64,000 bases of DNA from a virus (taxonomy: Duplodnaviria > Caudoviricetes), in IMG/VR virus record IMGVR_UViG_3300012665_000509, positions 1-64,000 of that record. One strand, written 5' to 3'. Of this stretch, positions 170-6,048 are shown in pieces. Positions within the stretch are counted from its first letter, which is position 1. Every line of letters starts with the position of its first letter. A program made the translations under genes and the position numbers. The notes beneath the pieces are model-generated. The model was not told the DNA's origin. It worked only from the letters and a program-made list of their open reading frames with translations, and made no database searches.

Positions 170-1166
170 GAAAGTAGCATGTTTTACAGACATACATTTT
201 GGTTTAAAATCTAACAGTAGCGTACACAACCAGGATTGCGAAGACTTCGTAGACTGGTATATTGCTAAAGCAAAGGAGGAAGGCTGTGATACTGGAATAT
301 TTATGGGGGACTGGCATCACAATCGTAATAGTCTTAACATCACTACTATGGACTATAGCCTTAGGGCCTTGGAAAAGTTGGGTCAAGCCTTTGATAACTT
401 TTACTTCTTTCCTGGCAATCATGATTTATATTACAAAGATAAGCGGGATATACATTCCGTCGAGTTTGGCAAGTATATTCCTGGGATTACTGTTGTACAC
501 GAGCCTACTACTATTGGGAACGTTACGCTGTGCCCGTGGCTTGTAGGCGACGAATGGAAGTCTATTGGTAAGAAAGGTGGCAAGTATATCTTTGGTCACT
601 TTGAATTGCCTAGCTTCTTTATGAACGCTATGGTACAAATGCCGGATCACGGTGAGATTCAATTAGACGCATTTAAAGAGTACGAGCTAGGTTTTAGCGG
701 ACACTTTCACAAGCGTCAGCAAAAAGGCAATATGGTTTATATTGGCAATGCTTTCCCGCACAACTACGCAGATGCGTGGGATGATGAACGAGGAATGATG
801 ATCCTAGAATGGGATGGTAAACCAGAATACCATAGTTGGCCTAAGCAGCCTACATTTAGAACTGTCAAGCTAAGTCAGCTTATTGACGAAGCTGACTCAT
901 TAATCTTGCCCAAGCAACATTTACGTGTTACACTAGATATTGATATCTCGTATGAAGAAGCAAGTTTTATTAAAGAAAAGTTTATTTCTGATTATGATAT
1001 TAGAGAACTTACATTAATTGCTGAAAAGAAAGAAGCAGAAATTAATACTAATATTGATATCCAAGCATTTGAATCAGTTGACCAAATTGTTTCAAGTCAG
1101 CTTGTAAACATTGACAGCGATACATATAACAAAAACACGCTACTAGCGATTTATAACAGCCTATGA
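153..1166 (+). CDS. gp47: Mre11/SbcD-like recombination nuclease subunit
   Basis: Metallophosphoesterase motifs FTDIHFG, GDWHH, GNHD, GHF, FSGHFH, YIGN. Start moved to ATG 153 (AAGGA at 141-145). Confidence 0.93.
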   Translation: MTQLFKKVACFTDIHFGLKSNSSVHNQDCEDFVDWYIAKAKEEGCDTGIFMGDWHHNRNSLNITTMDYSLRALEKLGQAFDNFYFFPGNHDLYYKDKRDIHSVEFGKYIPGITVVHEPTTIGNVTLCPWLVGDEWKSIGKKGGKYIFGHFELPSFFMNAMVQMPDHGEIQLDAFKEYELGFSGHFHKRQQKGNMVYIGNAFPHNYADAWDDERGMMILEWDGKPEYHSWPKQPTFRTVKLSQLIDEADSLILPKQHLRVTLDIDISYEEASFIKEKFISDYDIRELTLIAEKKEAEINTNIDIQAFESVDQIVSSQLVNIDSDTYNKNTLLAIYNSL

Positions 1167-2941
1167 TAAAGATTAAAGATCTAACAGTAAAAAACTTTAT
1201 GAGTGTGGGCAACCAGACTCAAGCAGTAGACTTTGGTAAGGAAAACTTAACCCTTGTGTTAGGTGAAAACTTAGACCAGGGCGGGGACGATAGTGGTTCA
1301 CGTAATGGTACAGGTAAAACTACCATTGTAAATGCGTTGAGTTTTGCCTTGTTTGGTAATGCGCTTACTAACATTAAAAAAGACAATCTAATTAACAAGA
1401 TCAATAATAAGAACATGTTAGTTACATTATCTTTTGAAAAAGACGGGACTGACTATCGCATTGAACGGGGACGCAAACCTACACTATTAAAGTTCTACGT
1501 CAACGATCAAGAGCAAGAAACAGACGAAACTGATGATGCTCAAGGCGACATGCGAGAAACACAAAAAGATGTTGATGACTTGTTAGGCATGAGTCATGAC
1601 ATGTTCAAACATATTGTAGCATTGAATACTTACACAGAGCCTTTCTTAAGTATGAAGTCGGCAGATCAACGAGTAATTATTGAGCAGTTGCTAGGAATTA
1701 CTTTGCTGTCAGAAAAGGCAGAAACACTTAAAGAAATGATTCGTACTACTAAAGACGAAATTCTACAAGAAAGTGCTAACATAGAAGCTACTAAAAAATC
1801 TAATGAAAAGATTCAGCTGAGTATTGATAGTTTGCTAACAAGACAAACTGCTTGGAATTCACAAAAAGAAAGCGACTTAGAAAAAATTGGTCGAGCTATT
1901 ATTGAATTAGAAGATGTAGATATTACAGCTGAATTAGAAGCCCACGCATTACTAAAAACTTATACAGAGCAGGCCGCTAAACTAAAGAGCCTAAACAAAG
2001 AGCGGGCAACCTTAGAGAGCGCGACAGCGCAAGCGGAGCGAAGCGTAAAAAAATACGCGAGCGAGCTTGCCGCACTAGATGGTAAAAAGTGTCACGCCTG
2101 TGAGCAGGATCTACATGATCACAAACATGAAGAAATGTCTGCTACTGCTAAAACACACTTGGCCGATGCCGAGTCGTATGCTCTTAAGGTAGCTACTGAT
2201 CTAGCTAAGATTAACAGCGAACTAACTGCTATTGGTGAGCAAACTGCTCGTCCAGACACTTACTATGACACCGTAGAAGAAGCATTAAAACACCAGAACA
2301 ATCTTAAAACGCTGGAAACACAGTTAGTTGTTAAGGCTGGTGAGAATGATCCGTATCAAGAGCAAATTGACGAACTGATGGAAACTGCCCTACAAGAAAT
2401 TACATGGGACACAGTTAACGAGCTTAACACACTCAAAGAACATCAAGAGTTCTTGCTCAAATTGTTGACATCCAAGGATTCGTTTATTCGTAAAAAGATC
2501 ATTGATCAAAACCTAGCATACTTGAACAACAGACTCACTTACTATCTTGATCGTATGGGTCTGCCTCATACTGTAGTGTTTCAAAATGACCTAACAGTTG
2601 AGATCACCCAGCTAGGGCAAGATTTAGATTTTGATAATCTAAGTCGAGGTGAGCGTAATAGACTTATCCTTGGTCTGTCATGGGCTTTCCGTGACGTGTG
2701 GGAATCACTATATCAAGGCATTAACTTGTTGTTTGTTGATGAACTTATTGACAACGGCTTAGATGCTAGTGGTGTTGAGTCAGCGTTAGCTGTGCTTAAG
2801 AAAATGGGTCGTGAACGTAAAAAGAACATTTTCTTGATATCGCACAAAGACGAACTTATTGGTCGTGTTAACAATGTACTACGTGTTATCAAAGAAAACG
2901 GATTCACTAGCTATGCTAATGATTTAGAAGTTAACGAATAA
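1163..2941 (+). CDS. gp46: Rad50/SbcC-like ATPase subunit
   Basis: KNFMS, Walker A NGTGKTT, coiled coil with zinc hook CHAC, signature LSRGE, Walker B LLFVDE, ISH; overlaps gp47 stop. Confidence 0.95.
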   Translation: MIKIKDLTVKNFMSVGNQTQAVDFGKENLTLVLGENLDQGGDDSGSRNGTGKTTIVNALSFALFGNALTNIKKDNLINKINNKNMLVTLSFEKDGTDYRIERGRKPTLLKFYVNDQEQETDETDDAQGDMRETQKDVDDLLGMSHDMFKHIVALNTYTEPFLSMKSADQRVIIEQLLGITLLSEKAETLKEMIRTTKDEILQESANIEATKKSNEKIQLSIDSLLTRQTAWNSQKESDLEKIGRAIIELEDVDITAELEAHALLKTYTEQAAKLKSLNKERATLESATAQAERSVKKYASELAALDGKKCHACEQDLHDHKHEEMSATAKTHLADAESYALKVATDLAKINSELTAIGEQTARPDTYYDTVEEALKHQNNLKTLETQLVVKAGENDPYQEQIDELMETALQEITWDTVNELNTLKEHQEFLLKLLTSKDSFIRKKIIDQNLAYLNNRLTYYLDRMGLPHTVVFQNDLTVEITQLGQDLDFDNLSRGERNRLILGLSWAFRDVWESLYQGINLLFVDELIDNGLDASGVESALAVLKKMGRERKKNIFLISHKDELIGRVNNVLRVIKENGFTSYANDLEVNE

Positions 2942-3206: not shown

Positions 3207-3653
3207 ATGACATGGTTATATCAAAATCAGATATTAGAAACACTACCGGAAGACTGCGTAGGGTTCGTCTATGTCATTACCAATAATATCTCTGGGCGCA
3301 AATATATAGGCAAAAAGTTAGCTAAGTTTAGCAAGACCACTTACAAAGTAGTCAAGTTAAAAAATGGCACTAAAAAGAAAAAGAAGATTCGCAGTAAAAT
3401 TGACAGTGACTGGCGTGAGTATTATGGATCAAGTCCAAATCTTACAGCAGACATCGAGGCACTAGGCAAAGAAAACTTCACCAGAGAAATCTTATATTAT
3501 TGTAACTCAAAATCAGAATGTAGTTATATCGAGGCAAGAGAACAGTTTAGTCGCAGGGTTTTAGAATCCGACGATTATTACAACGGGCACATCCAGGTCA
3601 GAGTCCACGGCTCACATATTAAGAAAAACCCCCCAGGCCAAATCAACGGTTAA
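3207..3653 (+). CDS. stand-alone GIY-YIG endonuclease (148 aa)
   Basis: GFVYVITN...KYIGKK motif, later YYGSS and conserved E/N (YIEAREQF...YYNGHI); no C-terminal DNA-binding extension. Confidence 0.88.
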   Translation: MTWLYQNQILETLPEDCVGFVYVITNNISGRKYIGKKLAKFSKTTYKVVKLKNGTKKKKKIRSKIDSDWREYYGSSPNLTADIEALGKENFTREILYYCNSKSECSYIEAREQFSRRVLESDDYYNGHIQVRVHGSHIKKNPPGQING

Positions 3654-4109: not shown

Positions 4110-4117
4110 TATAAATA
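4110..4117 (+). promoter_or_regulatory. T4-type late promoter TATAAATA
   Basis: Exact T4 late consensus ~20 nt upstream of ATG 4139. Confidence 0.8.
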
Positions 4118-4138: not shown

Positions 4139-4963
4139 ATGAAGATTTACGACATTATTAAAGAAGAAGAACAACAGGTAGACGAAGTTGTTGGACTACT
4201 ACGTGCCGCGGGTAATTTTATTAAGCCGGCTGTAAGTGCTGTTGGAAAGCTAGGATCTAAAACAGCTACAAAAGCACCTAAAACTAGTTTAAGTACTAAA
4301 GTTCAAAACACAAAAGCTAATGTCGTTTCTGGTTACGGTAAGACAATGGAGTTGTCCGATGAAGCTATTAAATGGTATACTCGTTACAAAGGTATTTGGG
4401 AGCCAATTAGCGAGTACCGCGAAAATATGGCTGTGTGGGAACAGAAACTTAAGAACGGTGAAATCACTGAGAAAGAATATGAGTATGCTAGAGAAAAATA
4501 TCTATCATACCTAGTTGGACGCATTGGTGCTTATGTAACAGTAAGCGGTATGATCCGTACAACTGTGTTGCCAGCAGTAGCAGGATTGAGATTATTTAGA
4601 GGTACTAGATCAGCAGGATCAACACTAAGCGTACTAGCACGTGGTGCTAACTTGTATGTTGTTACAGAATATCTAAACAGTCCAGAAGGTAAAGATCTTA
4701 TAGCCAAGGCTTTTGCCGAAGGCCCGTTAGGTGATATGGTTGCGCCGTTTATAGGCGGAAGTGCCGCTAAACTGATTGACAAGCTCCAGGGCAAAGTACG
4801 TGAAAAAGATCCAGAGGACGAAGAAGCTGAAAAAGAACCAGTTAATACCTTAGCCGGTCCTGAACCTGGATATGATCCAGCAAAGCCTCAAGACCAGGAT
4901 ACTCCAATTAATATGGTGCGCGATCCTGCTACAGGTAAATTGCGTATTAAGACTGACTATTAA
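4139..4963 (+). CDS. late-expressed hypothetical protein, possible internal head protein
   Basis: 274-aa ORF behind a late promoter; N-terminus MKIYDIIKEE resembles the T4 capsid-targeting leader MKTYQEFIAE. Confidence 0.6.
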   Translation: MKIYDIIKEEEQQVDEVVGLLRAAGNFIKPAVSAVGKLGSKTATKAPKTSLSTKVQNTKANVVSGYGKTMELSDEAIKWYTRYKGIWEPISEYRENMAVWEQKLKNGEITEKEYEYAREKYLSYLVGRIGAYVTVSGMIRTTVLPAVAGLRLFRGTRSAGSTLSVLARGANLYVVTEYLNSPEGKDLIAKAFAEGPLGDMVAPFIGGSAAKLIDKLQGKVREKDPEDEEAEKEPVNTLAGPEPGYDPAKPQDQDTPINMVRDPATGKLRIKTDY

Positions 4964-5193
4964 ACCAGCGGCATTTGTGTAGCTTTAGTAGTTTCTAAGT
5001 TGTCTTTGATGACAGTGTACATTGCTTCGCGATCGTCAAAAGAATACGAATGTAACAATTCAGCTACCGATACTCCGCCTCTCATGTACCAGCTAATTCG
5101 CATTAGCTCTTCTTTAAATTCTGTTATTTCTTTTTCTAGCCTAACTAAGTATTCTTCAATTTCTAAGGCGTTTAACTTAATTAGGCGTTCTCG
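4960..5193 (-). CDS. gp51: gp51/gpT-like tail-assembly chaperone C-terminal frame, probably reached by -1 frameshift
   Basis: Not in the ORF track. Hand translation RERLIKLNALEIEEYLVRLEKEITEFKEELMRISWYMRGGVSVAELLHSYSFDDREAMYTVIKDNLETTKATQMPLV*. The frame opens exactly at the T TTT TTC site, with an in-frame TAA immediately upstream. Confidence 0.7.
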   Translation of the reverse strand, partial: RERLIKLNALEIEEYLVRLEKEITEFKEELMRISWYMRGGVSVAELLHSYSFDDREAMYTVIKDNLETTKATQMPLV

Positions 5194-6008
5194 AAAAAAT
5201 TAGAATTATCTAGTTCAATGGCTAGTGTGTTGGTAGTATTACAGTTTTCACATACTACTACTTGATCAGGTGTTCGCCATTCTTCTTGGTTTTGCTGATA
5301 GCGTTCTTTAATTCGATCAAATATTGTTTTGTCAGTGTTTTGTAACCATTCTAAAATAAAGTCTTTTTCACTAACCACTTGATTTGACACGTTAACACTT
5401 TCAATTCCGGATGCGATAATTTGATTTTGTAATACCGCTAGCTCCTGTAGTAGCTCCGAGACAATTTTTTTACGTTCAACGTCGTCAATAATTGCGTCTG
5501 TTTGAAATATTTTTTGACGGATTTGAAAATTTTGCTGAGAGTAATCTGTTGATTCTTTGTAGGTAATTGGTCTAATTTTTACAGTTAATTCATCTAATAC
5601 AATAGAATTATTGTACTTGCATGTAGCTGTATGCTCAATAATAGTGGATAAATTAATGTCATATTCGTTTTCTGTAGAGCAGTTAGGACACACATGTTTA
5701 ACGTTCATAGTGTTACCGTAGGTAGCAATACGAATAGCAGAAAGTATTAGATCTAAGTCGATTACGCTGATATCCCAAGCATCTTTAATAAAGGGACAAC
5801 AGCTTTCAATAACCTTAACTGTGCTTTCTCCTGCTAGTAAAGCATCCGGTGTTTTCATTAGAATTTCATCCATGCCAGTCATACCAAATACAGGCATATG
5901 ACTAGCATCTCCGGCAATAGTTCCGGGTTTATTATAGACCCCATTAGACGGCAAACCAATGAAAATCTTTGGTTGTCTAAAATACTGCTGTAACGGATTT
6001 TGTGCCAT
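5181..6008 (-). CDS. gp26: T4 gp26-like baseplate hub / tail-assembly chaperone
   Basis: LPSNGVY, DEILMKTPD, DLDLILSAIRIATYG, two CxxC pairs (CPNC, CENC), ends SNFFENA; divergent from the tape-measure-like gene. Confidence 0.75.
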   Translation of the reverse strand: MAQNPLQQYFRQPKIFIGLPSNGVYNKPGTIAGDASHMPVFGMTGMDEILMKTPDALLAGESTVKVIESCCPFIKDAWDISVIDLDLILSAIRIATYGNTMNVKHVCPNCSTENEYDINLSTIIEHTATCKYNNSIVLDELTVKIRPITYKESTDYSQQNFQIRQKIFQTDAIIDDVERKKIVSELLQELAVLQNQIIASGIESVNVSNQVVSEKDFILEWLQNTDKTIFDRIKERYQQNQEEWRTPDQVVVCENCNTTNTLAIELDNSNFFENA

Positions 6009-6019
6009 TTTCTACTCCA

Positions 6020-6048
6020 GATAAATATATTGTACAACTGTATTTATA
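6020..6048. promoter_or_regulatory. divergent late promoter pair
   Basis: GATAAATA on + (6020-6027) and TATAAATA on - (6041-6048) in the 64-nt gap between gp26-like and tape-measure genes. Confidence 0.7.

Follow-up and report, generated by a model that had tools for sequence, protein, structure and literature searches.

The window examined here, the 64,000 nucleotides (nt) at positions 1 to 64,000 of the IMG/VR virus record IMGVR_UViG_3300012665_000509, carries on its minus strand an open reading frame (ORF) of 275 amino acids (aa) that resembles gp26 of phage T4 and whose 3' end is overlapped by a second open frame, shifted by -1. The ORF matches the Pfam family PF12322 (T4_baseplate; 7.3e-14 and 52.4 bits against a gathering cut-off of 24.5, residues 60-272) and, in PHROGs, the baseplate hub family phrog_150 (4e-16). 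PF12322 is its only significant Pfam match, with no match to a Pfam Phage_TAC family, and the ORF is in turn the sole PF12322 match across the 76-kb source record. Judging from the layout of its 3' end and from the conservation of that layout in relatives, we consider it very likely that a programmed -1 ribosomal frameshift links the gp26-like ORF with the frame downstream of it, and that one gene would thereby give rise to a 275-aa and a 349-aa protein, the short and the long form of a putative tail assembly chaperone (TAC).

In the zero frame the ORF terminates TCT AAT TTT TTC GAG AAC GCC TAA, and the elements expected of a frameshift site surround this end (Table 1). After a slip, the -1 frame is open for 77 codons (5193..4963) up to a stop at 4962-4960, and the earliest ATG, GTG or TTG within it lies at 5103. 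The computed products are 275 aa in length without the slip and 349 aa (...SNFF-RERLIK...) with it. The initial annotation had placed the heptamer at 5199-5193, followed by a 6-nt spacer, a stem of 12 base pairs (bp) with a 24-nt loop and a -1 frame extending to 4960, all of which proves correct to the base, and the products of 275 and about 349 aa that it predicted agree with the computed translations.

Table 1. Features of the chaperone locus and its surroundings, in window coordinates.
Feature	Position	Strand	Remarks
gp26-like zero-frame ORF, 275 aa	5181..6008	minus	putative TAC-N short form; PF12322, phrog_150
TAA closing the -1 frame directly upstream of the heptamer	5200..5202	minus	
Slippery heptamer T_TTT_TTC	5193..5199	minus	X_XXY_YYZ phase, zero frame
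Spacer GAGAAC, 6 nt	5187..5192	minus	
Hairpin, 12-bp stem (5186-5175 with 5150-5139), one U-G pair, 24-nt loop	5139..5186	minus	5' arm includes the zero-frame stop TAA 5183-5181
-1 extension, 77 codons and stop	4960..5193	minus	predicted to encode the C-terminal (TAC-C) portion of the 349-aa product
TATAAATA, T4-type late promoter motif	6041..6048	minus	33 nt before the ATG; motif match only
Divergent neighbour, 685 aa	6073..8130	plus	possible tape measure or virion protein
gp46-like gene	1163-2941		

The relatives with which the site was compared comprise 49 IMG/VR loci (39-57% identity), 22 from another clade and 11 cultured jumbo phages, which together give 56 distinct sequences; the closest cultured relatives, at 25-33% protein identity, are RaK2, PBECO4/121Q, GAP32, CBB, PA5oct, Atu_ph07, Phosso, XacN1, SCTP-2 and others. 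The heptamer is present and in phase in all 56 distinct relatives (20-57% protein identity), as TTTTTTC in 54 and as TTTTTTT in 2, and a run of seven T instead of six is seen in XacN1 and RAS14. It precedes the zero-frame stop by 1-11 codons, a tail that varies in sequence as well as in length, and is followed by a -1 ORF of 70-81 codons. The only Phe columns conserved at 80% or more across the protein are the two at the slip site, and the second of these is encoded by TTC in 37 of 39 sequences, TTC making up 28% of the Phe codons in these genes.

The -1 peptide, in turn, is conserved from its first post-slip residues (FFRxxL..., 28 aligned relatives). Variability at codon positions 1, 2 and 3 is 1.18, 0.77 and 1.35 in the zero frame upstream of the heptamer and 1.09, 0.72 and 1.34 in the -1 frame over the first 30 codons past it, so that coding constraint switches frame exactly at the heptamer and before any start codon. 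No ATG, GTG or TTG lies within 30 nt past the stop in 40 of the 56 sequences, and PA5oct has none across its whole -1 ORF. In one relative (L034, 2501-3325) a zero-frame stop is met when reading from the tblastn start, with the heptamer present at 3310-3316, which may be an assembly error or an intragenic frame change.

The hairpin downstream of the heptamer is both the minimum free energy and the centroid fold, and at -14.4 kcal/mol it is more stable than any of 200 shuffled sequences (-5.9 +/- 2.0, z -4.25, 0/200 as stable). In the window's clade (18 sequences), 94.4% of the stem cells are paired, compared with 18-53% in slid controls. Double-sided changes are found in 5 of the 12 stem pairs (16 cells), a level reached by none of 500 shuffles, and the spacing between heptamer and stem is 5-6 nt throughout the clade. 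Other clades have unrelated stems, which begin 6-9 nt past the heptamer (z -7.8 in Atu_ph07, -4.4 in Phosso, -4.5 in XacN1 and -3.1 in L040). As the heptamer is found in all relatives and the stems differ or are absent, the heptamer is universal and the stimulator common but replaceable.

Further support comes from proteins in which the two parts are encoded in a single frame. An exhaustive HMMER search of 1.84 billion representatives with a profile of the extension returned 310 proteins at E<=1e-3, most of them stand-alone calls of 41-98 aa, and among them about 20 clusters in which one ORF, 319-351 aa long, carries the extension at its extreme C-terminus. PF12322 is found in the N-terminal part of all nine in-frame long forms tested, and the computed frameshift products align with the in-frame long forms without a gap across the junction. 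At this junction FF is present in 39 of 39 frameshift-type sequences and in none of 20 of the in-frame type (xF[R/Y/K/F]), from which it follows that retention of the first Phe and of the T run is confined to sequences that need the slip. A word-indexed search for longer proteins with the extension had returned none; since HMMER found some 20 such fusions, this negative reflects a limit of that method. A 1435-aa repeat protein matching the extension profile (P0150) looks like a spurious repeat match, and P0125 and P0116 were not recovered from viral contigs.

One of the in-frame long forms, P0171 (325 aa; extension profile E 2.8e-12), could be placed on a phage contig of 195,761 bp (L086). There it directly follows P0250 (305 aa), a PF12322 paralogue that lacks the extension and ends ...SNFNTEK. 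By contrast with T4, which has two PF12322 genes, the complete genomes of PBECO4, PA5oct, Atu_ph07 and RaK2 have one each. The frameshift proposed in the initial annotation, for which conservation of the heptamer, of the spacing and of compensatory stem changes in relatives had been named as a check, is therefore well supported: the heptamer is kept in phase in every relative, the stem covaries at a spacing of 5-6 nt in the window's clade, the constraint changes frame, most relatives are without a start codon close to the stop and natural in-frame fusions exist.

Identification of the gene product as a TAC can be approached from predicted structure as well as from family assignment. An AlphaFold2 model of the in-frame long form (predicted local distance difference test score, pLDDT, 92.3; predicted template modelling score, pTM, 0.87) has the junction inside a helix at 245-253 and the extension as helices at 258-287, 292-296 and 300-319. 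Matches in BFVD are T4-like hub assembly proteins, up to E 3.5e-13 (in-frame homologue). Foldseek against the PDB returned nothing for either model, a comparison of the sequence profile with PDB chains likewise returned nothing, and matches to helical hairpins drowned out all else when VIA was applied to the complete long-form model. For the model of window residues 1-130 (pLDDT 86.6), ranking against 48,161 PDB chains places YqbN first (3klu; Z 6.0, root-mean-square deviation, rmsd, 6.3 Å, 88 aligned) and the HK97 tail assembly chaperone second (2ob9; Z 5.0, rmsd 6.9 Å, 90 aligned), with unrelated rows at Z<=3.4. This ranking of a modelled domain is specific and independently supports, as support rather than proof, an identity as tail assembly chaperone.

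Four cysteines of the window protein (C107, C110, C252 and C255; about 5690-5679 and 5255-5244, minus strand) make up two CxxC knuckles, which are invariant in the frameshift-type and the in-frame long forms. In the model they are carried on two beta-hairpins, the second knuckle lying 15 residues before the slip site, and they probably form a zinc ribbon from distant segments of the chain.

From these observations we infer slippage, how often it occurs and what each form does, as follows. Most ribosomes would stop at the TAA at 5183-5181 and release the 275-aa short form. A minority would pause over U_UUU_UUC (5199-5193), owing to the hairpin that starts 6 nt downstream, whereupon both tRNA-Phe could re-pair one base back (UUU-UUC to UUU-UUU) and reading would continue in the -1 frame for 77 further codons, giving the 349-aa product as the minor, long form. 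By analogy with lambda G/GT and with T4 gp26/gp51, the N-terminal part shared by both forms may bind the tape measure or the hub, and the C-terminal helical extension may add a second contact that is needed in small amounts.

Several observations weigh against this reading. TTTTTTC occurs 13 times in the AT-rich window where 16 +/- 4 are expected, and is thus not enriched; as the heptamer alone is not unusual, its weight comes from position, phase, hairpin and conservation among relatives. No hairpin that beats shuffles was found in RaK2, GAP32, L037, L042 or L046, and the structural matches to chaperones have modest Z and a high rmsd (6.3-6.9 Å). An additional U inserted by RNA polymerase would yield the identical protein. 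In 16 of the 56 relatives, for example PBECO4, Atu_ph07 and Phosso, an ATG or TTG overlaps or lies near the stop and separate initiation is possible; GenBank annotates the loci of these three phages as two coding sequences (CDS), and in the window itself the sequence TAATT at the stop would permit an AUU start.

Polymerase slippage, in which RNA polymerase would insert an extra U while copying the T6 run, the altered mRNA then being read through, would account for a homopolymer at the site (T6, or T7 in XacN1 and RAS14). For a bacterial RNA polymerase to slip efficiently, a run of some 8-9 or more is required. The T6 run is short by this measure, and selection has preserved the C that follows it in 54 of the 56 sequences instead of extending the run. 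Moreover, a heptamer strictly in X_XXY_YYZ phase and a hairpin that covaries at 6 nt answer the needs of a ribosome and are irrelevant to a polymerase, and we regard slippage during transcription as very unlikely.

Both residue conservation and the codon-position signature set in at the heptamer, a point upstream of all candidate starts, and this sits poorly with the possibility that the downstream frame constitutes a small gene of its own, reached by reinitiation or from its own start (AUU 5181-5179, AUGs at 5103 and 5085) and releasing a separate peptide of 41-77 aa instead of a fusion. Such a gene would be in keeping with the start codons that overlap the stop in PBECO4 (TAATG), Phosso and Atu_ph07 (ATGA), overlaps that automatically place the following gene in the -1 frame, with the corresponding two-CDS annotations and with the many stand-alone products of 41-98 aa listed by gene callers. 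T4 offers a parallel for unusual initiation, as its gene 26 has an internal in-frame start, annotated as the 26' CDS and reportedly identified as an AUU by Nivinskas et al. in 1992. Against this, the 40 relatives that lack a canonical start close to the stop, as well as PA5oct with none at all, would have to be set aside, the invariant heptamer, the TTC bias and the spaced hairpin would be left unexplained, natural in-frame fusions exist, and the Met of the "ELM" start at 5103 is not conserved; a separate gene is accordingly very unlikely in our estimation. Finally, that there is no recoding, only the 275-aa protein being made and the downstream frame being a decaying remnant or a chance open frame, is scarcely credible, for while TTTTTTC is common in the window and the extension has no Pfam or PHROG match, the -1 ORF is 70-81 codons long with a sequence conserved in 56 lineages down to about 20% identity, its profile finds the 310 proteins described above, and its third codon positions vary most.

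The two predicted products of the window gene can be related to gp26 and gp51 of T4. PF12322 spans residues 1-206 of T4 gp26 (208 aa) and 1-201 of gp51 (249 aa), the latter having 48 extra C-terminal residues, a segment that carries PF28602 in precomputed hits. In hhalign, the profile of all fused forms aligns collinearly with the gp51 family (14-339 with 4-249), reaching the last residue of gp51, at a probability of 65% and E 6e-5. For the C-terminal part alone against the gp51 tail the hhalign score is 14.7, compared with 10.5 +/- 2.1 (maximum 17.7) in 60 column shuffles, and is not significant. Against single T4 gp26 or gp51 sequences, hidden Markov models built for hub, extension or fusion gave matches too weak to be of use, the global mode of hhalign mis-paired the two zinc knuckles, and the extension has no credible Pfam or PHROG match even at E<=10. 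The extension had been called gp51-like from the outset; collinearity of the fused profile speaks for this label and the C-terminal part by itself does not, so that we retain it as reasonable, moderately supported by sequence comparison but unproven. T4 gp26 itself ends ...KEFFELL, with FF encoded by the non-slippery TTC TTT (L056:1303-1330, minus strand), and its stop codon shares the sequence TAATG with the start of gene 25.

Published work bears on the same relationship. PMC3004832 lists T4 gp26 and gp51 as chaperones of hub assembly and gives gp51 as absent from particles. Vladimirov, Gautam and Davidson (2022), as presented in passages of PMC10885494 and PMC12846349, describe T4 gp26 and gp51 as short and long tail assembly chaperones; the passage in PMC10885494 adds that some T4-like phages have a short gene and a fused long gene in place of frameshifting, and that in PMC12846349 that poly-T slip signals occur in the TAC-N genes of T4-like phages. 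These accounts imply that the concept has been published and that the slip may have been as well, and Vladimirov 2022 probably covers the concept. The initial annotation, regarding T4-type gp26 and gp51 as separately expressed, had seen in a structure-stimulated frameshift a mechanistic link; as a claim to novelty this is weakened, since both the chaperone identity of the pair and poly-T slips are reported in these passages. A literature search, outside which Vladimirov 2022 fell, returned no description of this slip in jumbo phages.

Annotation of the homologous loci in public records varies. None of the 11 GenBank records inspected annotates a frameshift. The homologue of the chaperone gene is annotated as "structural protein" in CBB; it is misannotated as "portal protein" in WPEC5 (PV654397.1) and as "Lead, cadmium, zinc and mercury transporting ATPase" in fHe-Yen9-04 (LT960551.1/NC_042116.1).

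The divergent 685-aa ORF next to the chaperone gene may encode a tape measure or another virion protein. Its homologue also lies beside the gene in PBECO4, PA5oct, RaK2, GAP32 and CBB; an annotation note for RaK2 likens the homologue to a tape measure protein, and in PA5oct the homologue was found in virions by mass spectrometry. It has no Pfam or PHROG match, and a single BLASTP comparison with T4 gp29 gives a weak match of 98 residues (E 5e-4). The chaperone gene thus adjoins the 685-aa ORF as first described, in divergent orientation and not upstream on the same strand, and the accompanying label of tape-measure-like derives only from the RaK2 note and the weak gp29 match.

The surroundings of the locus are those of a T4-related phage, with genes for gp47/gp46-like nuclease subunits, a segE-like GIY-YIG gene and a T4-type portal (Pfam, PHROGs). 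The source record is a 76-kb IMG/VR fragment with an estimated completeness of 21%, which indicates a giant phage, and megablast of the locus against cultured phages gave no match; the source is an uncultured giant T4-related phage. A TATAAATA motif lies upstream of the 275-aa ORF (Table 1) and none precedes the -1 extension, which fits a single late transcript. The segE-like GIY-YIG homing endonuclease ORF (3207-3653, plus strand; PF19835, 4.6e-33) is situated between the gp46-like gene and the chaperone locus. On the plus strand, a 274-aa ORF at 4139-4963 converges on the -1 extension, the two stop codons overlapping at 4960-4963; it has no Pfam or PHROG match and is preceded by a late-promoter-like TATAAATA at 4110-4117, 22 nt upstream.

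As the mechanism is textbook and the chaperone identity of gp26 and gp51 is published, the advance lies mainly in annotation and evolution: the frameshift is not mechanistically new, and its value is in the annotation and in the evolutionary link between one-gene and two-gene arrangements. A function and a mode of expression can be proposed for a short ORF that is unannotated or "hypothetical", here and in the RaK2-like, PA5oct-like and Atu_ph07-like jumbo phages examined. The T4 gp26/gp51 pair is also tied to G/GT logic through an intermediate, in which one gene with a slip stands where T4 has two genes of one protein family. In addition, an invariant heptamer combined with variable or absent hairpins and with in-frame relatives would form a natural system for asking how frameshift efficiency is set. 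It could be speculated, with considerable doubt, that the slip is undescribed for the clade of RaK2/PBECO4/GAP32, PA5oct, Atu_ph07, XacN1, SCTP-2 and numerous uncultured giant phages of fresh water and soil, in which case all public records of it would be mis-annotated, and that one gene plus slip is the ancestral state, with T4 26/51 and the L086 tandem being independent duplications that replaced recoding. Were the ancestral slip and the independent duplications true, these phages would provide a natural series for why tail assembly needs a fixed ratio of short to long form.

A -1 frameshift in genes that encode tail assembly chaperones of long-tailed phages, as in lambda G/GT, is classical, and its conservation is said to have been described by Xu, Hendrix and Duda in 2004. 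The window gene shares with lambda G/GT two predicted products with a common N-terminus, an X_XXY_YYZ slip a few codons ahead of where the short form terminates, a -1 extension of about 70-80 aa and a position adjoining a gene that may be tape-measure-like. The solved members of the lambda class, YqbN and HK97, are moreover the best PDB matches of the modelled N-domain. There are also differences. The window protein, a 275-aa member of PF12322 with a four-Cys, zinc-ribbon-like insertion, is much larger than lambda gpG, and its gene is divergent from the tape-measure-like gene, whereas that of lambda lies upstream on the same strand. The lambda site, G GGA AAG, is not known to be followed by a strong hairpin, unlike the window's slip site with its covarying 12-bp stem.

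Another example is gene 10A/10B of phage T7, which uses a -1 frameshift at G_GUU_UUC. In common with the window site, this would involve a slip of tRNA-Phe from UUC to UUU in the A site, in a late structural gene of a phage of a Gram-negative host; it differs in that the gene encodes the capsid and in its P-site codon and stimulators. The T7 frameshift is mentioned in a passage of PMC12846349.

The T4 pair and the L086 pair are closer in protein family. T4 gp26 and gp51 belong to the same Pfam family as the window protein, and the roughly 48 additional C-terminal residues of gp51 are like the long form predicted here; T4 divides the two between separate, divergently transcribed genes where the window has one gene, and T4 gp26 retains the FF of the window's slip site but is without a slip site. 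The L086 pair shows the two-gene layout of T4 with P0171 combining PF12322 and the same extension as the window's long form. It differs from the window in that P0171 is a single ORF without FF or a T run at the junction (...CNIFRNKL...) and in that its short paralogue, P0250, is without the zinc-knuckle cysteines.

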